Assembly (NCBI GenBank): GCA_963781885.1
Contig: CAWAHW010000001.1
Coordinates: forward strand, 512,001-576,000
DNA length: 64,000 bases
DNA from: an uncultured Spirochaetota bacterium
GTDB lineage: Bacteria; Spirochaetota; Spirochaetia; SZUA-6; Fen-1364
Direction: 5' to 3'
Part shown: piece after piece, positions 56,144 to 64,000 of the stretch
Layout: each line of letters begins with the position of its first letter
Numbering within the stretch: position 1 is the stretch's first letter
The notes under the pieces: generated by a model
Databases searched by the model: none
Seen by the model: the letters and a program-made list of their open reading frames with translations, nothing else
What the model was told of the DNA's origin: nothing
Made by a program: the position numbers and the translations under genes

Positions 56144-56371
56144 ATGGAATTTTGCATATACTTGGCAAATGGAAAGCCGGGAACTGCCGATGTATTTCTC
56201 TGTGGGGGAAAGTTTACCGTGCGGAAATAGGGCAGCCAGCTCCTGCTGCCACTCGTATTCCTTGACTCCGGCCGGGGCCGTTTGTAGCTTCTCTCACCGG
56301 GAGGGTACAGCCGTCGCCCTGGCGCGCCTCCTGGCCCTCGCCCGGACGTCGAGCGTTCGAGGAGGGTGGTG

Positions 56372-57271
56372 ATGGCAGCACATGCGTCCTGGAAGGGATT
56401 CCTGAAGCTCAGCCTCGTGTCGGTTCCCGTCAAGGCATACACGGCAACGGCCACCGGCAGCGACATCACGCTGCATCAGCTTCACGCGCAGACCCATACC
56501 CGCATCCAGTACAAGAAATTCGCCCCCGAGGTCGGCGAGGTATCGAGCGACCAGATCGTGAAGGGCTACGAATACGACAAGGGCCAGTACGTCATCATCG
56601 ACGAGGATGAGCTGGACAAGCTGCGCACGGAGAACGACAAGGCCATCCGCATCGACGGCTTCATCCCGCCCGACCAGTTGAGCACGGTCTATCTCGGCGG
56701 CAGGACCTACTTCCTGACCCCGGACGGCCCCGTGGGACAGAAGCCGTACAACCTCCTCATGAAAGGGATGGAAAAGGCGGGCCTCTGCGCCATCGCGGAA
56801 GTGGTCATTTCCCAGAAGGAGCAGGTCGTCATGGTGAGGCCCGTCGACGGGGTGCTCGCGATGACGGTGCTCAACCGCAAGGACGAGGTGAAGGCAGCCT
56901 CCGCGTTCAAGGACGAGATCACGGAGACGGAGGCCACGGAGGCGGAGAGATCGCTCGCCGATACCCTCATCCAGGCGTCGATCATCAAGGAGTTTGATTT
57001 CGGCCGCTACCACGACGTCTACAAGGAGAAGCTCACGAAGCTCATCCAGCTGAAGATTGAAGGCAAGGAGGTGGTCCAGGTGCGCGACCCCGAGGAGCCG
57101 AAGATCATCAACCTGATGGAGGCCCTCAAGCGCAGCGTGGAGGAAGCCCAGGCCGCGGGACGCACCGGTGGCGAGGAAAAGAAGAAGGCAAAGGCCGGCC
57201 TGAAGCAGACCGCCAGCGCCAAGCCTGCAAAGACGGTCACGGCTGCGCCGAAGAAGAGGAAGGTTGTCTAA
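56372..57271 (+). CDS. ku: Non-homologous end joining protein Ku
   Basis: WKGFLKLSLVSVPVK.Y, LHQLH, RIQYK, IVKGYEY, INLMEALKRS, Lys-rich tail; GGAGG RBS. Confidence 0.96.
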   Translation: MAAHASWKGFLKLSLVSVPVKAYTATATGSDITLHQLHAQTHTRIQYKKFAPEVGEVSSDQIVKGYEYDKGQYVIIDEDELDKLRTENDKAIRIDGFIPPDQLSTVYLGGRTYFLTPDGPVGQKPYNLLMKGMEKAGLCAIAEVVISQKEQVVMVRPVDGVLAMTVLNRKDEVKAASAFKDEITETEATEAERSLADTLIQASIIKEFDFGRYHDVYKEKLTKLIQLKIEGKEVVQVRDPEEPKIINLMEALKRSVEEAQAAGRTGGEEKKKAKAGLKQTASAKPAKTVTAAPKKRKVV

Positions 57272-58157
57272 GCACCTCCCGCGCCTCGTGCCGCCCATGC
57301 TGGCCGTGATGGGCCAGCCCTTCGATTCGGACACCCATTTCTTCGAGTTCAAGTGGGACGGCTACCGCGCCGTGGCGATGGTGGAGGACGGCGCCGTTCG
57401 CCTGGTGAGCAGGAAGGGCATCGACCTGACGGGTCGCTACCCGGCCCTTGCGCCGCTGGGCACGCTCCCCGCGGGGCTCGCGCTCGACGGGGAGATCGTC
57501 GCCTTTCGCAACGGCGTGCCGAGCTTCGAGCTGGTCGCGCACCACGATCGCGCGGCAACGGAGCCGCTGAAGTTCATTGCGTTCGACATCCTCTATCAAG
57601 CGTTCGAGCCGGTCATGGACCGGCCGTTCACGGAGCGCCGCGCGATGCTGGAGCGCGTGATCGCGGAGTCGCCACGCCCGCCGCTCGTTCTCTCGGAAGG
57701 CGTAGCGGCCACGGGAAAGGCCCTCTTCGAGAGGGCCTGCGTCCAGGGCCTCGAGGGCGTGGTGGCAAAACGGCTGGGGAGCACGTACGCCCCGGGCAAG
57801 AGGAATGGCGCCTGGGTCAAGATCAAGAGGCGTCTCAGCGTCCAGGTCGTCATCATCGGGTATATCGAAAAGGAAGGCCGCGATTTCCAGAGCCTCCTGG
57901 TGGCCTCCAACGGAATCCCGGGCGGCACGGGCGGACCGCTCCTCTACATCGGGAAGGTGGGGGGCGGGTTCACGGACGCAGTACGCGCGGAGCTGAACGC
58001 GCTCCTGCGGGAGCATCCCCGGGCAAAGCCCCTGGTGGCCTGTCCCGAGCGTGGCACATGGGTTGAGCCGGGCCTCTACTGCACGGTAAGCTTTGCAGAG
58101 ATGACCGGGGCCGGCATGCTTCGCGCTCCGGTCTTCGAGGGACTGATACACGCGTAA
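57264..58157 (+). CDS. Stand-alone ATP-dependent DNA ligase (LigD/LigC ligase + OB domains only)
   Basis: Motif I EFKWDGYR, LDGEIV, FDIL, EGVVAK, WVKIK, LRAPVF; overlaps the ku stop. Confidence 0.92.
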   Translation: MSKHLPRLVPPMLAVMGQPFDSDTHFFEFKWDGYRAVAMVEDGAVRLVSRKGIDLTGRYPALAPLGTLPAGLALDGEIVAFRNGVPSFELVAHHDRAATEPLKFIAFDILYQAFEPVMDRPFTERRAMLERVIAESPRPPLVLSEGVAATGKALFERACVQGLEGVVAKRLGSTYAPGKRNGAWVKIKRRLSVQVVIIGYIEKEGRDFQSLLVASNGIPGGTGGPLLYIGKVGGGFTDAVRAELNALLREHPRAKPLVACPERGTWVEPGLYCTVSFAEMTGAGMLRAPVFEGLIHA

Positions 58158-58163
58158 GGACCG

Positions 58164-59354
58164 ATGGACACCACACCGTTGACGGGGGCAGAGGTCGCCC
58201 TGACAGGTCGTCTTCTCTCCATGACGCGCGCGCAGGCCGTGAAGCTCCTGCAGCAGGCGGGAGCGCGGCACGCGCGCGAGCCCGGCGCGTCCACCGCGCT
58301 GCTCGTGGCCGGGGAGGCCATCGGCAACCTCACCTCGGACGGCCGGATATCGCACAGCCTCGAGCTGTTCCGGCAGCTGAAGAGGCAGGGCAGCGCCATC
58401 CGCCTGGTGGAGGAGACGGAGTTCCTCCGCCTGCTGGGCGCGCAGGACTCGCTCGCCGACATCTCCCGGCTGTACACCGCTGAGCAGGTGAGCCGCATCG
58501 TGGAGGCGCCGCTTTCCGAGGTGCGCGCCTGGGTGCGCAAAGGCCTGCTCCAGCCGGCCCGGCAGCACAACCGGCTTGCCTGGTTCGAGTTCAAGAACAT
58601 CGTTCAGGCGCGCAACCTGAGCAGGCTCACCGCTTCAGGCGTACCGGCATCGCAGATCCACAGGAGCCTGTCGGAGATCGCGCGCTGGCTGCCCGACGGT
58701 GAGCGCATCATCGGCCGGCTGGAGGCCTACGCGCGCGGCCTGCGTGTGAGGCTTCCCGATGGCGGGCTCGCCGAGCCCAGCGGGCAGCGCCTCATGGATT
58801 TCCAGCGCAGCGGCAGGGGCGATGCGAGCCTCCAAGAGGTGAGGCGGGTATCGGTCTTTCCGTCCGAGGTTGCCGCGCCGCCGAAAGCCGGCACGCCTTC
58901 TGCCGCGGACTGGCGCGCTGCTGCCGAAGAGGCCGAGGAGCAAGGCGACCTCGGCGCGGCCGCGCTGGGCTATGCGCGGGCGGTTGCGGACGCACCCGAC
59001 GCGGAGACATTCTTCGACCTGGGCAATGTCCTCTACGAGCTGGGCAGGGAGGGGGAGGCGGCGGAGCGCTACTTGCAGGCCATCCAGCTCGAGCACGACT
59101 TCGCCGAGGCGTGGAACAACCTGGGCAACGCGCTCGTGGCGCTCCGCAAGCTGGAGGACGGCGTGCGCGCCTACGAGATGGCGCTTGCCCTGGAGCCCGG
59201 CTATCCCGACGCGCACTGCAATCTTGCCACCGTTCTGGAACGGCTGGGTCTCTCAGAGAAAGCCATGGCCCACCGGGGCGCCTGCCTGCGCGGGCTTCCT
59301 AGCGAAGCGCATCTCAGCCTGCTGCGCCAGCCGGCACGCGCTGACGAGGATTAG
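58164..59354 (+). CDS. BRCT + MerR-type HTH + TPR protein
   Basis: BRCT like that of NAD ligase (ALTGRL.SMTR..A..L..AG..LLVAGE..EETEFLRLL); MerR HTH (YTAEQVSRI..VRAWVRKGLL.P); 3-4 TPRs (AWNNLGNAL). Confidence 0.85.
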   Translation: MDTTPLTGAEVALTGRLLSMTRAQAVKLLQQAGARHAREPGASTALLVAGEAIGNLTSDGRISHSLELFRQLKRQGSAIRLVEETEFLRLLGAQDSLADISRLYTAEQVSRIVEAPLSEVRAWVRKGLLQPARQHNRLAWFEFKNIVQARNLSRLTASGVPASQIHRSLSEIARWLPDGERIIGRLEAYARGLRVRLPDGGLAEPSGQRLMDFQRSGRGDASLQEVRRVSVFPSEVAAPPKAGTPSAADWRAAAEEAEEQGDLGAAALGYARAVADAPDAETFFDLGNVLYELGREGEAAERYLQAIQLEHDFAEAWNNLGNALVALRKLEDGVRAYEMALALEPGYPDAHCNLATVLERLGLSEKAMAHRGACLRGLPSEAHLSLLRQPARADED

Positions 59355-59695: not shown

Positions 59696-60913
59696 ATGAA
59701 AAGGATTTTATTCTTAGGTGCTCTGTTGCTCGTATTGGGTCTGGCGGCTTGTAAAACGCCGTCGCCGAGTGGAACTTCCTACTCCTACTGGCAAGCATAT
59801 TCGAGCGCAGTTGATTCCAGCGGCAACTACTACGTCGCCGGAACGCTCGCAACCTCGGCTCAGGCGTCGAACTCCACAAATACCCAAGGCATCCCGGTCT
59901 ACTGGGAAAACGGCGAAGCAGCACCGCAGCCACTGCCGATGGGCACAAATGGGGATAGCACGGCCAACAACTTTGGTTTTGCAGAGCGCGTTGTGACCCA
60001 AGGGACTCATGTTTATATCGTAGGCGGAGTGAATCACACCACGACCAGTGGCGTGGCCAACTCTCAAGCGGTCTACTGGAAAGACGGCGCGATAAACGTA
60101 CTATCCCTGAGCGGCGGCAACACTTGGGGGTGGGCAGACTGCATTGCCGTTGATGGCTCAGGGAACGTTTATGTTCTAGGTGAAGAGGGCAATAGCTCTA
60201 CCTATTACGCAATCTGGAAGAATGGCACTGTCCTTGCTTCCGCCGCAGCGAACCCATACTTCAACAATCAAGGGATCGCCGTGGACTCCAGCGGCAACAT
60301 ATGGGTCATTGGTCTCTATGGAACTTCGAACAACACCGCCGCAGCCGCATACGGTGAGTACAGTTCTTCCGGAAGCTTGCTAGCCAATGGCACGCCGTCA
60401 GGCGCCACAAACCTTACCGGCATTGTCGCGGACGCTTCCGGACACGTGTACATGTCAGGAACAACTGGAGGATCGCCTTTCTCCTATTCGACAGGCTATA
60501 GCAACAATTGGACACCAACCGTCTGGAAAAACTTGGTCGCTACATCTCAGGCCCTCACGGTGGGAGCCACAACCTACACCTACGGGTTTGCAAGGTCCCT
60601 CGCTCTTGACTCCTCGGCAAATATCTACGCCAGCGGAGTTGTGTTCAGTCCAGGCCCCACCGTACCTGTGTACTGGAAGTTGAACACCACCGCGACGGAG
60701 CTGAATGTGACAGGCTTCAGCTCTAATGCGGCTTGGCAACAATCAAGCATCGCTGTTGACGGATCGGGGAATGTGGATGCCGAAATCGAGACTACCCCTG
60801 GTACGGCGACTCAGACGAACAATTTCTTTGTCGCTCCTACGGCCTTGATCAATTGGATGGGAGCTTCAAACGCGCCAACGACCCTGATGAGCAATCCCGT
60901 GACTGTGCAATAG
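59696..60913 (+). CDS. AT-richer lipoprotein with beta-propeller-like repeats
   Basis: Lipobox LGLAA-C; repeated AVD.SGN.YV.G and YWKNG/VWKN motifs. Confidence 0.8.
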   Translation: MKRILFLGALLLVLGLAACKTPSPSGTSYSYWQAYSSAVDSSGNYYVAGTLATSAQASNSTNTQGIPVYWENGEAAPQPLPMGTNGDSTANNFGFAERVVTQGTHVYIVGGVNHTTTSGVANSQAVYWKDGAINVLSLSGGNTWGWADCIAVDGSGNVYVLGEEGNSSTYYAIWKNGTVLASAAANPYFNNQGIAVDSSGNIWVIGLYGTSNNTAAAAYGEYSSSGSLLANGTPSGATNLTGIVADASGHVYMSGTTGGSPFSYSTGYSNNWTPTVWKNLVATSQALTVGATTYTYGFARSLALDSSANIYASGVVFSPGPTVPVYWKLNTTATELNVTGFSSNAAWQQSSIAVDGSGNVDAEIETTPGTATQTNNFFVAPTALINWMGASNAPTTLMSNPVTVQ

Positions 60914-60935
60914 GCCGCGATGGACATTCGCTCTT

Positions 60936-60965
60936 GCTCGGGGCTCACTCAGCCGGGCCCCGAGC
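60936..60965. terminator. Stem-loop after the lipoprotein gene
   Basis: gctcggggc / gccccgagc inverted repeat. Confidence 0.45.
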
Positions 60966-61023
60966 CTATGCGGGGTGACCCTGCGCCCACAGTTTGAACG
61001 AATAGAAGCGCTGCAATGTCACG

Positions 61024-61051
61024 AAAAACGGACCGGCCACGGCCGGTCCGT
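61024..61051 (-). terminator. Rho-independent terminator for the minus-strand lipoprotein pair
   Basis: acggaccggc-cacg-gccggtccgt hairpin followed by a T-run on the minus strand. Confidence 0.7.
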
Positions 61052-61070
61052 CATGGAAAACATGAGATTG

Positions 61071-61916
61071 CTAATTGCGTGCGAGGTGTCTGGCAGCCAT
61101 CACATCGGTCATGAGAAGGTAGGAACCATCACTTGCAACGCTGAATGTCCTGCTGCTTCCCGAGTTATTGTATAGCGTGGAAGTGCCTGCGGTGAAAGTA
61201 GTCCCCGAGGTCCATGTGTACGGAGTATTCACGTATTGCAGGTAATTATAGGTGAGGGTTTTCCCCTTGGCACTGTCGAGGCTCGTCACACTGTTCGGCA
61301 CGATCGCGCTCACCGTGTAGACACTGTTGGACTTGCTGCCATTGGTTGCCGTGCCAGTTGCGTCGTAGCTTACAGATTCCGAGGTGTACGTGACAGTCGA
61401 GAAATCGGGAGCGATGACAATAGTCCAGGTATACGTGTTTGACGTACCATCCCAGTAGGTTGTGTTTTGACTTTCAACGTAATTGCCGCCGCTTCCCGGG
61501 AGAGCTTCATACTCGTTGGAAGAACCGAATACTTCAGTGTATGAATATGTCCTGGTGGAAGTGGATGGCGAGCTGAGCATGACGTAGCTTCCACCAATGC
61601 CGCCATTCCATATCTGGGTGTAGGTGATCGTCATCATTCGCGTGCCGGTGTTGTAGGAGTACGTGCCTTTGTCGCCACCGGATTGCTCCCACGTGGAACT
61701 TGTGGCATCCCAACTCTTACTGATGTCTTCGTATGTGCCATCGGCCGCGTATGTCTCCGTATAGGAGCCATAAAAGGTATACGTCACATCCTTTGTCATG
61801 TGCCCATTGCTGTCAAAAGCAACCTCAGTATCGCTGTATGACCAGATCGGGCTGCACGCCGTCAGAAGCAACGCCCCAGCGGCCATCGCGATCAGAAGGA
61901 AGATGAGTTTCTTCAT
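61071..61916 (-). CDS. Thr/Ser/Tyr-rich lipoprotein, paralog A
   Basis: AAGGAG RBS; MKKLIFLL..LLLTA-C lipobox. Confidence 0.85.
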   Translation of the reverse strand: MKKLIFLLIAMAAGALLLTACSPIWSYSDTEVAFDSNGHMTKDVTYTFYGSYTETYAADGTYEDISKSWDATSSTWEQSGGDKGTYSYNTGTRMMTITYTQIWNGGIGGSYVMLSSPSTSTRTYSYTEVFGSSNEYEALPGSGGNYVESQNTTYWDGTSNTYTWTIVIAPDFSTVTYTSESVSYDATGTATNGSKSNSVYTVSAIVPNSVTSLDSAKGKTLTYNYLQYVNTPYTWTSGTTFTAGTSTLYNNSGSSRTFSVASDGSYLLMTDVMAARHLARN

Positions 61917-61985
61917 GCCGACTCTCCTTGAATATTTACCAAAAGCATTTTTACGGGCTCTCACGTTGCCGGGACAACGGAGAGG

Positions 61986-62828
61986 CTATTTGATTCCAAG
62001 GTGCTTCGGCACATTCATATTGGGATAGACGATGTAGGAACCGTCGCTTGCAATGCTAAATGTGTCGCTTTCCGAGTTATTGTATGTCGTGGAAGCGCCT
62101 GCGGTGAAGTCAGTCCCCGAGGTCCATGTGGACGGAGTGTCGACGTAACTCAGGTAATTATAGGTAAGGGTTTTCCCCTTGGCACTGTCGAGGCTCGTCA
62201 CTCCGCTTGGGAAGATCGCGCTCACCGTGTAGACGTCGCTGGACTTGCTGCCACCGTTTGGCGCGCCAGATGCGTCGTAGCTTACAGATTCCGAGGTGTA
62301 CGTGACAGTCGAGAAATCGGAGGGGATGACAATGGTCCAGGTATATGTGTTTGACGTACCATTCCAATAGGTCCTGTTTTGACTTTCAATGTAGTTGCCG
62401 CCGCTCCCGGGGAGAGCTTCATACTTGTTGGAGGAACTGAATACTTCAGTGTATGAATATGTCTTGCGGGAAGTGGACAATGAGGTGAGCGTGACGTAGC
62501 TTCCACCAATGCCGCCATTCCATATCTGGGTGTAGGTGATCGTCATCATTCGTGTGCCGGTATTGTAGGAGTACGTGCCTTTGTCGCCACCGGATTGCTC
62601 CCACGCGGAGTCAATGGCATTCCAACTCGTTCTGATGTCTTCATATGTGCCATCGGCCGAGAAAGTCTCCGTGTAAGAGCCACGAACGATATACGTGACA
62701 TCCTTTGTCATGTGCCCATTGCCGTCAAAAGCAACCTCGGTATCGCTGTATGACCAGATCGGACTGCATGCCGTCAGAAGCAACGCCCCTGCCGCCGTCA
62801 CGATCAGAAGGAAGATGAGTTTCTTCAT
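61986..62828 (-). CDS. Thr/Ser/Tyr-rich lipoprotein, paralog B
   Basis: AAGGAG RBS; same lipobox; highly similar to paralog A. Confidence 0.85.
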   Translation of the reverse strand: MKKLIFLLIVTAAGALLLTACSPIWSYSDTEVAFDGNGHMTKDVTYIVRGSYTETFSADGTYEDIRTSWNAIDSAWEQSGGDKGTYSYNTGTRMMTITYTQIWNGGIGGSYVTLTSLSTSRKTYSYTEVFSSSNKYEALPGSGGNYIESQNRTYWNGTSNTYTWTIVIPSDFSTVTYTSESVSYDASGAPNGGSKSSDVYTVSAIFPSGVTSLDSAKGKTLTYNYLSYVDTPSTWTSGTDFTAGASTTYNNSESDTFSIASDGSYIVYPNMNVPKHLGIK

Positions 62829-62902: not shown

Positions 62903-62932
62903 CCATCATATAATGATGGCGCATCATGTCAA
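62903..62932 (-). promoter_or_regulatory. Putative sigma70 promoter with overlapping palindrome
   Basis: Minus strand TTGACA-N16-TATGAT; palindrome CCATCAT-ata-ATGATGG (62903-62919) covers the -10. Confidence 0.6.
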
Positions 62933-64000
62933 CATGGTCCTGGTGTCGCGATCTCTTTCGCCATCTCACGGTAGCGACACAGGCCATTTGCCCACCGCAT
63001 CTGCTCGGGCGTGCTGCATTCCGGCTCCAGGAGGCGGCGCGCCGCCACAAGGATGCATACGCACTGGGCGCGGCTGGTGGCCACGTTCAACCGGTTTGGA
63101 TTGAAGAGGAAACCCATGCCGCGAGGCGCGTCGATGGCGGAGGAGCTTGCCATCGAATAGATGACCACGGGAGCTTCCTGGCCCTGGAACTTGTCCACGG
63201 TTCCCACGCGGAGCGCGGGAAGACGGGCCGAAAGCGCCGCCACCTGCGCGTTGTAGGGCGCCACGACTAGTATGTCGGATGCGTGCAGCCTGCGCGCCGT
63301 GCCGTGCGAATCGGTCCACGTCACGTCGGGTGAGAGAAGGCTCTCCGCAATGGCCGCGATTGCCGCCACCTCCTCCGGAGAGCTGTTCTGATTGCCTTCG
63401 TGGTCCACGGGCACGTAGAAAAGGCCGCTGCCGGCAAAGGGCGTATCACCGTTGATGGCCTGTCGCTCCAGCCCCGCGCGGGAACGGAGCCGGCCTTCGT
63501 AGAAAAGCTCGGAGGTGAACGCGCATATGCGGGGGTGCAGCCTCCAGGTCTCGTCGAGGAAAAGCCCCGCCTCATCGGCAAGCGTCTTCCGCCCCTCCAG
63601 CACGTGCACAAGAGCCGCCACCTCCGCACCTTCGGGATGCGCGCCGCGCTGGGGCTGCTCGAGCTGCTGCGGGTCGCCCAGGAGAACGAGGTTGCGCGCG
63701 GACCTCGCAGCGGCGAGCGCGAACGCCAGCGACATCTGTCCTGCCTCATCGATGAAGAGGTAATCCACCGATTCGATCATGTCGTCCCGGGCCCAGAACC
63801 AGCAGGTTCCGCCGACCACCTTGCCCTGGCCGAGCCCTGCCGCTGCCTTTTCGTTCTTGTCCGTCTCTTCGACGCCCGGCGTCTTTTCCACGCCCCGCTT
63901 GCTCACCTTGTGAATGGCAGCCACGGGCGCACCTGCGGGGGCCGCGCGGACGACCTGCTCCAGGAAGTGCCTGATCACCTTGTGACTGACAGCCGTGACC
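62929..64000 (-). CDS. DNA2/NAM7-like SF1 helicase, C-terminal part (likely TM0106-type nuclease-helicase); 5' end outside window
   Basis: IDEAGQ, LGDPQQL, WRLHP, APYNAQV, TVDKFQGQEA, NRLNVATSRA. Confidence 0.88.
   Translation of the reverse strand, partial: VTAVSHKVIRHFLEQVVRAAPAGAPVAAIHKVSKRGVEKTPGVEETDKNEKAAAGLGQGKVVGGTCWFWARDDMIESVDYLFIDEAGQMSLAFALAAARSARNLVLLGDPQQLEQPQRGAHPEGAEVAALVHVLEGRKTLADEAGLFLDETWRLHPRICAFTSELFYEGRLRSRAGLERQAINGDTPFAGSGLFYVPVDHEGNQNSSPEEVAAIAAIAESLLSPDVTWTDSHGTARRLHASDILVVAPYNAQVAALSARLPALRVGTVDKFQGQEAPVVIYSMASSSAIDAPRGMGFLFNPNRLNVATSRAQCVCILVAARRLLEPECSTPEQMRWANGLCRYREMAKEIATPGPC

Follow-up and report, generated by a model that had tools for sequence, protein, structure and literature searches.

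A BRCT-MerR-TPR gene conserved behind ku and ligase genes and its possible role in bacterial end joining

In the textbook account, bacterial end joining relies on two proteins, Ku and LigD. Here we describe a third gene, termed T, which lies behind ku and a stand-alone ligase gene in the genome of an uncultured Spirochaetota bacterium (contig CAWAHW010000001.1, positions 512,001 to 576,000; this whole stretch of 64,000 nt is hereafter the window, and coordinates are window positions). The product of T joins a BRCT domain to a MerR-type winged helix-turn-helix (wHTH) and tetratricopeptide repeats (TPRs), and both this architecture and the linkage of T to ku and ligase, which persists across phyla and rearrangements, are directly observed. 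The linkage is conserved far past what ancestry within one order would give, and T probably assists the joining of double-strand breaks in bacteria, as a helper not described before. Our preferred reading, to which we give about an even chance, is that T acts as an accessory factor without catalytic activity, binding DNA and Ku, in a split, cassette-like form of non-homologous end joining (NHEJ) in bacteria. Such an extra NHEJ-linked component was seen repeatedly: in Spirochaetota and Planctomycetota, at one Anaerolineales locus and in a group with the label Gemmatimonadota. In full-text searches of the literature no paper on a BRCT-MerR-TPR protein with Ku was found, the supplements of PMC7719229 and PMC9226535, which might list it, lying outside these searches; the NHEJ survey PMC7719229 scores ku-ligD proximity only, as far as its accessible text goes.

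Table 1. Features of the ku-ligase-T locus. L045 and numbers with the prefix G are locus and genome labels of this analysis.
Feature	Position	Strand	Basis
Putative ku promoter, TTGACT-17 nt-TAGCTT	56262..56290	+	Hexamers and spacing kept in genus-mates
ku, 299 amino acids (aa); alternative GTG start at 56366, 301 aa	56372 (ATG)..57271	+	PF02735, TIGR02772
Stand-alone ATP-dependent ligase, 297 aa; nucleotidyltransferase (NTase) and OB domains only, nearest the LigD ligase-domain type	57264 (TTG)..58157	+	PF01068, PF04679
T, 396 aa; BRCT / MerR-type wHTH / TPR protein	58164 (ATG)..59354	+	Pfam, NCBIfam, AlphaFold2 (AF2) model
T residues 2-97: BRCT domain, LigA/RFC1 type	58167..58454	+	Profile against PDB, Foldseek, VIA-align
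T residues 102-200: MerR-type wHTH, then short helix and conserved hairpin segment to ~213	58467..58763	+	PF13411, profile and fold matches
T residues 247-388: four TPRs and capping helix	58902..59327	+	Pfam TPR families, AF2 helices, TPR fold matches
GC-poor island (~0.52; genome ~0.66) with three lipoprotein-like genes	59696..62828		Between T and the convergent helicase/LigD-like genes
3' part of RecB-like nuclease / RNase H-like / SF1 helicase gene (1141 aa)	62929..64000, continuing to L045:14355	-	TIGR03491 251.9 bits; AAA_11/AAA_12

Architecture of the ku-ligase-T unit

The preliminary description of this DNA placed ku, the ligase and a third gene in one tight unit on the + strand, and this layout is borne out by the window sequence, in which ku and ligase share 8 bp at their stop and start and the ligase stop is followed after a 6-bp gap by the start of T. 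Judged from gene spacing alone, the three would be co-transcribed. A terminator scan returned no terminator-like site on the + strand either within the unit or behind T.

Ku matches PF02735 at 1.9e-44 and reaches the equivalog level of TIGR02772 with 254.1 bits (cut-off 150) over profile positions 1-259, a full-length match. The sole Pfam domains of the operon ligase are PF01068 and PF04679, with neither LigD_N nor Prim-Pol, and it is thus no three-domain LigD, in which phosphoesterase (PE), Prim-Pol and active ligase share one polypeptide. Its best-scoring family is TIGR02779, matched over 1-292 of 302 positions at 223.8 bits, just under the cut-off of 227.75. The motif I lysine (KxDG) is found in K30 W31 D32 G33, which is invariant across 42 orthologues, and KWDG is kept by every stand-alone ligase compared. 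A ligase without the LigD polymerase (Pol) and PE domains, as first described, is correct for the gene itself but not for the genome, which encodes both domains about 7 kb downstream of T, outside the window. They reside in a LigD-like protein of 677 aa (L045:14369-16399, - strand, ~2.4-4.4 kb past the right end of the window), comprising PE (residues 33-140), NTase (198-359, 46.7 bits) and Prim-Pol (402-654). Of the 302 positions of the ligase model, the NTase match takes in just 9-183, which leaves the protein without an OB fold; in motif I it reads FEPLFAGRR in place of the FEFKWDGYR of the operon ligase, and so lacks the adenylation lysine. This lysine-less form stands beside Ku-Lig-T in 24/24 loci readable at motif I, which come from three phylum-level groups. 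From its sequence, the NTase looks like a pseudo-ligase domain retained as a linker or scaffold.

All three parts attributed to the third protein, BRCT, MerR-type wHTH and TPRs, could be modelled and matched. The AF2 model of full-length T, built from a 126-sequence cross-phylum alignment, has a pLDDT of 86.5 and a pTM of 0.82; residues 1-240 were also modelled separately (pLDDT 83.8), because TPR matches filled the Foldseek list of the whole model. The Pfam BRCT model PF00533 gives no match to the T protein of the window at E <= 0.1, and has a precomputed match in four T homologues. In NCBIfam, residues 2-90 align to the BRCT ends of LigA and of PRK06195 (a DnaQ-BRCT model), and a BRCT-only profile of 26 orthologues searched against the PDB finds E. 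coli LigA residues 597-670 (2owo, 4.7e-9) and the RFC1 BRCT (2ebu/2k6g, 2.8e-8). The profile alignment with LigA displays a common G-x-x-V-x-x-T-G-x-L start of the domain, and T carries a ~14-residue insertion relative to LigA. Structural comparison also points to BRCT domains, with Foldseek matching the RFC1 BRCT at E 3.3e-4 and VIA-align giving matches of Z 8.7-9.0 (~77-82 aligned residues, root mean square deviations of 2.7-3.6), to be read with the caution that Z values near 8 carry middling weight only. The top VIA-align match is 9hu3_B (Z 9.0), chain B of a structure whose PDB title names a heterodimeric DNA ligase from a phage; for 2k7f, which models the RFC1 BRCT with DNA, Z is 8.8. 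A chain of a Pol mu NHEJ complex and the Lig4 BRCT are among the weaker fold and profile matches.

The central domain matches MerR_1 (PF13411) over residues 104-170 at 9.2e-7 (29.3 bits, cut-off 21.6), and a profile search of the PDB finds GlnR (4r4e) at 1.7e-4. Its fold is matched by CvkR (7xn2, Z 8.9), TipAN, BmrR, GlnR/TnrA and SoxR, as well as by RacA and pSK1 Par (Z 7.5-7.8), which bind DNA in an architectural role. Behind the wHTH, only a 14-residue helix (179-192) is predicted, followed by strands and a disordered linker, and the AF2 model of T contains no long antiparallel coiled-coil dimerisation helix of the MerR type. The hairpin segment in this region has R196, G200, P205, G207, Q208 and L210 invariant or nearly so (alignment A2), and together with the wHTH it is the best-conserved stretch of the T family. 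The C-terminal part scores above the cut-offs of TPR_11, TPR_1, TPR_2 and other TPR families over residues 250-370, is modelled as eight helices and a cap, and matches consensus TPR and OGT TPR folds with target-normalised TM values of up to 0.94. Designer PPR proteins, which top the PDB profile searches through many weak repeated stretches, each with an i-Evalue > 4, were judged to be artefacts. Among the defence-system models of PADLOC, none matches Ku, the ligase or the LigD-like protein, and T gives only a 44-residue HTH match to mad1 (2.8e-5).

Conservation of the linkage across genomes and phyla

The preliminary description called for a survey of gene neighbourhoods and assigned the third gene to the operon; the survey is strongly positive in four phylum-level groups, and T is a conserved member of the ku/ligase cluster. 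We sampled 92 genomes of the window's order, which are related, so that the counts overstate independence. T is present in 45/92, Ku in 46/92 and both in 43. The two genomes with T and no Ku are G454 and G455, and among those with Ku and no T are G403, a short contig, and G429, which holds a Ku fragment. T occurs in 19/24 genomes of family f1, 20/24 of f63, 2/2 of f64, 3/21 of f66 and 0/20 of the other four families, with Ku spread near-identically. In 43/45 genomes T has a same-strand ligase <=150 bp upstream, frequently with a 4-bp start/stop overlap, and in 37 Ku is located <=300 bp upstream of the ligase. Five genus-mates of the window (G467, G466, G460, G464 and G457; L079-L083) have ku and ligase split by inserts of 2.6-11.4 kb, with ligase-T intact; the inserts carry unrelated cargo (a wHTH-DUF3224 protein, a BNR-repeat protein, MsrA) and no further NHEJ genes. 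The gene of a major facilitator superfamily (MFS) transporter, divergent from ku in the window, has its place downstream of T in several genus-mates; the surroundings are thus rearranged around a fixed ligase-T pair. The LigD-like gene falls within the fetched stretch in 23/45 genomes, convergent every time. In 11/45 T genes, all from one genus, the protein consists of wHTH and TPR only (~300 aa), without a BRCT, and still follows ku and ligase.

NHEJ had been remarked on as unusual for a probable spirochaete. Indeed, Ku is found in only 7/401 sampled Spirochaetota genomes and is thus rare in the phylum sample, yet it is common in the window's order, as the counts above indicate. Only one of the 401 genomes (G000) matched T, a result weak on absence as four candidates were scored per genome.

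With a profile of T residues 1-240, 4095 representative proteins (clusters at 50% identity) reach E <= 1e-3 and 296 reach E <= 1e-30; among the 150 matches listed, the majority are 370-430 aa long and are matched over the whole profile, and the named members of the family belong to Planctomycetota and Eisenbacteria. A locus search with the T protein of the window recovered only three true relatives, all labelled Spirochaetaceae or Spirochaetota, and the cross-phylum loci were gathered with a single family protein, P0134, as query. These comprise two records labelled Gemmatimonadota, in which a LigD-like gene is followed by Ku-Lig-T, one Anaerolineales record with the order Ku-Lig-T, and two Planctomycetia records with Ku-T and no ligase in between. 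One Planctomycetaceae T copy is without a BRCT and comes from a genome without a Ku match, and three further P0134 loci are TPR-only matches. In a sample of 251 Planctomycetota genomes, T matches 33 and Ku matches 34; in 20 of the 33 T-bearing genomes Ku lies <=3.3 kb upstream on the same strand, and in 1 it lies elsewhere. In six of the Ku-linked genomes the T match does not begin before the MerR domain. Of the 12 genomes in the phylum of G493, from which the records retrieved carry the label Gemmatimonadota, 7 have T, and in 7/7 it is located behind the ligase, close to it in 5 and ~0.85 kb off in 2; Ku was seen in the 4 loci with sufficient flank. In Planctomycetia a complete LigD, with lysine and OB fold, adjoins the Ku-T pair in 4/4 readable loci. 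T is therefore found with both ligase layouts, which ties it to Ku and the whole cassette rather than to one ligase architecture.

If T were a passenger, its adjacency would result from shared descent or block co-transfer and its role would be unrelated to end joining. Most of our counts do come from related genomes, the T family also lives without Ku, and Ku works without T elsewhere. Set against this, the order Ku-(Lig)-T is kept at 28-45% protein identity in four phylum-level groups, it survives where the ligase architecture differs, where the BRCT has been lost, where inserts have entered and where flanking genes have moved, and the reading frames overlap in the manner typical of functional partners. 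We therefore regard a passenger as very improbable.

Candidate roles of T

A prediction of the complex of T with Ku and ligase had been proposed, and we ran it with three chains, with T as the partner, custom alignments and Ku as a monomer. The score was 0.39, compared with 0.00 for the best of three controls, which is weak support; the runs agree in at least 52% of contacts and the partner pLDDT is at least 68. In calibration, which holds only roughly for this design, the score mark was reached by 58/80 solved complexes and 2/110 mismatched pairs, and at scores of <=0.60 by 7 of those 80 complexes and by both passing mismatches. When T and ligase were kept and Ku was replaced, the score fell to 0.00. 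The proposed prediction thus yields a weak signal for the three proteins, one that is gone without Ku, and hints that the predicted contact of T is with Ku.

This bears on the suggestion, made in the preliminary description, that T supplies a BRCT in trans to the stand-alone ligase. The two would then form a two-subunit ligase in which T binds ligase rather than Ku. Ligase and T are the tightest pair of the cluster, adjacent in all but two of the 45 genomes, the stop of one overlapping the start of the other, and the pair is preserved where ku has been moved away; the top structural match of the BRCT is to a chain of a heterodimeric ligase. The BRCT is facultative, however, being missing from the 11 linked copies of one genus, and the matches in six Ku-linked Planctomycetota start at the MerR domain. 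In Planctomycetia T lies directly behind ku, the ligase being part of a complete LigD, and the control that keeps the ligase has no signal, albeit in a run of weak support. As the BRCT is facultative and T also accompanies complete LigD, the suggestion is disfavoured, and we consider it improbable.

The same description left open whether the third protein is a scaffold or end sensor, or else a damage-responsive regulator. As a regulator, T would act through a minimal MerR, GlnR/TnrA-like wHTH on the NHEJ cassette or on a wider damage or stationary-phase regulon, with BRCT and TPRs as sensing or partner modules. MerR_1 scores above its Pfam cut-off, the profile and fold matches are mostly transcription factors (GlnR, TnrA, BmrR, CvkR, TipAN, SoxR), GlnR and TnrA are themselves controlled via a protein partner, and Ku-less paralogues in varied neighbourhoods would suit a general regulator. 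Classical MerR operators lie inside promoter spacers of 19-20 bp. The putative ku promoter, which was missed by a consensus promoter scan and has a weak -10, keeps the same -35 and -10 hexamers and the 17-nt spacer length in genus-mates, with spacer letters that differ, and among these genus-mates the spacer of the ku promoter, the one compared, has no shared dyad. In sequence the ku promoter therefore does not look like a MerR-type site, with its dyad operator in a longer spacer. We also observed a conserved GGGAGGG behind the ku promoter, with a ~80-nt GC-rich leader before the ku start in the window and some relatives; in other relatives GGGAGG doubles as the ribosome-binding site of ku. 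T is, besides, the last gene and translationally coupled to the ligase, it has a 14-residue helix in place of the long MerR coiled coil in the AF2 model, and its BRCT is of the LigA/RFC1 type, all of which speak against a regulator. Of the two proposed roles we thus favour the accessory factor; the regulator, to which the ku promoter lends no support, is rather unlikely, though it is a stronger contender than the ligase subunit or the passenger. We know of no earlier dedicated regulator of bacterial NHEJ, and T, if a regulator, would be the first.

In the accessory-factor reading, the NHEJ cassette would consist of Ku, ligase, T and the LigD-type end-processing protein. The MerR-type wHTH would bind duplex DNA beside the break and the LigA/RFC1-type BRCT, where present, would add recognition of the 5'-phosphorylated end or nick; PMC9293004 places RFC's site for 5' duplex DNA between the BRCT of Rfc1 and the AAA+ module. 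The TPR domain would hold a protein partner, most likely Ku, and T would thereby give the complex of Ku and DNA end the stability or order needed for sealing. DNA-end binding, contact with Ku and an effect on joining are what we infer from architecture, linkage and modelling. A bolder version makes T the third core factor of a widespread and hitherto undescribed type of bacterial NHEJ, a Ku-binding, DNA-end-recognising scaffold with the organising task that BRCT-mediated assemblies have in eukaryotes, which would have allowed LigD to split into a ligase and a PE-Pol protein with a dead ligase domain as a structural remnant; this is possible, and we hold it tentatively, with less confidence than the accessory factor itself.

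Several observations weigh against the accessory factor. MerR-type HTH domains are typically those of transcription factors, the genomes of the order are kin and their counts non-independent, Ku was modelled as a monomer, and the complex score of 0.39 lies in a range in which most passes are false. Ku also occurs without T: G420 has Ku-Lig with T truly absent downstream of the ligase, 13/34 Ku-bearing Planctomycetota genomes are without a T match, and no T was seen in the 6 further sampled Spirochaetota genomes that carry Ku, at four candidates scored per genome, from which it follows that NHEJ does not need T. Conversely, 12/33 T-bearing Planctomycetota genomes are without a Ku match. In a quick maximum-likelihood tree of 45 T sequences, with SH-aLRT as the only support and deep branches unresolved, 10/13 Ku-less Planctomycetota copies form one paralogous clade (SH-aLRT 99), placed among the Ku-linked Planctomycetota copies. 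The neighbours of this clade are unrelated housekeeping genes (sulfatases, SHMT, PGDH, TruA), and the T fold therefore does not need NHEJ. Either the function is a generic one, for example regulation or the binding of DNA or of damage, or the role has changed in this clade.

A paralogous set of BRCT-wHTH-TPR proteins, from genomes or positions without Ku, was collected in loci L110-L121 (G651, G734, G538, G590, G569, G685, G668, G737, G498, G702, G492 and G613), and G569 has two of them in tandem.

Wider locus and relation to known systems

The helicase gene that runs out of the window is directly downstream of the LigD-like gene, and its nuclease part is of the TM0106 RecB-like type. It stands beside the cluster in 14/45 loci of the order and, judged by its domains, the RecB-like nuclease/helicase fusion may be a further end-processing partner. 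Among the PADLOC models, MkoA and MkoC have matches to the helicase part. The GC-poor island between T and these genes is probably an insertion outside the NHEJ system, with relatives having no island at that position, where the LigD-like gene or the helicase abuts T. Two of the island's genes are close lipoprotein-like paralogues (61071-61964 and 61986-62828, both on the - strand).

Compared with canonical NHEJ, in which Ku works with a three-domain LigD (Mycobacterium, Pseudomonas, Bacillus), the cassette has a TIGR02772 Ku, a ligase that scores best on the LigD ligase-domain model, and PE and Prim-Pol nearby. It differs in that the activities are split: the active ligase stands alone beside ku, while the LigD-like protein keeps PE and Pol and an NTase without the motif I lysine and OB fold. 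It also has T as a third, conserved gene without a catalytic product, and no such gene figures in the accounts of canonical systems in PMC7719229, PMC8656161, PMC9638933 and PMC13717202, as far as their accessible text extends. For residues 2-97 of T, the BRCTs of LigA and RFC1 (p140) are the best profile and fold matches; unlike these, the BRCT of T shares its polypeptide with a wHTH and TPRs instead of an enzyme, can be dispensed with by some family members, and has DNA-end binding as a prediction only. With GlnR/TnrA, RacA and pSK1 Par, T has in common a wHTH fold without the long coiled coil, whereas the latter act as small regulators or serve to anchor chromosomes and plasmids, none of them with a BRCT, TPRs or linkage to ku.

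As for eukaryotic NHEJ, T has a single BRCT rather than a tandem pair and no homology past the BRCT fold, and the comparison with Ligase IV-XRCC4 and with Pol mu/lambda and Ku serves as a working analogy only, that of a BRCT-bearing, non-catalytic or adaptor element in Ku-dependent joining. If T does organise the repair complex, it would be a bacterial counterpart of these eukaryotic scaffolds (XRCC4-Lig4, Pol mu/lambda with Ku), could explain how a Pol-less ligase reaches Ku-bound ends, and would be a useful part for engineered end-joining systems.

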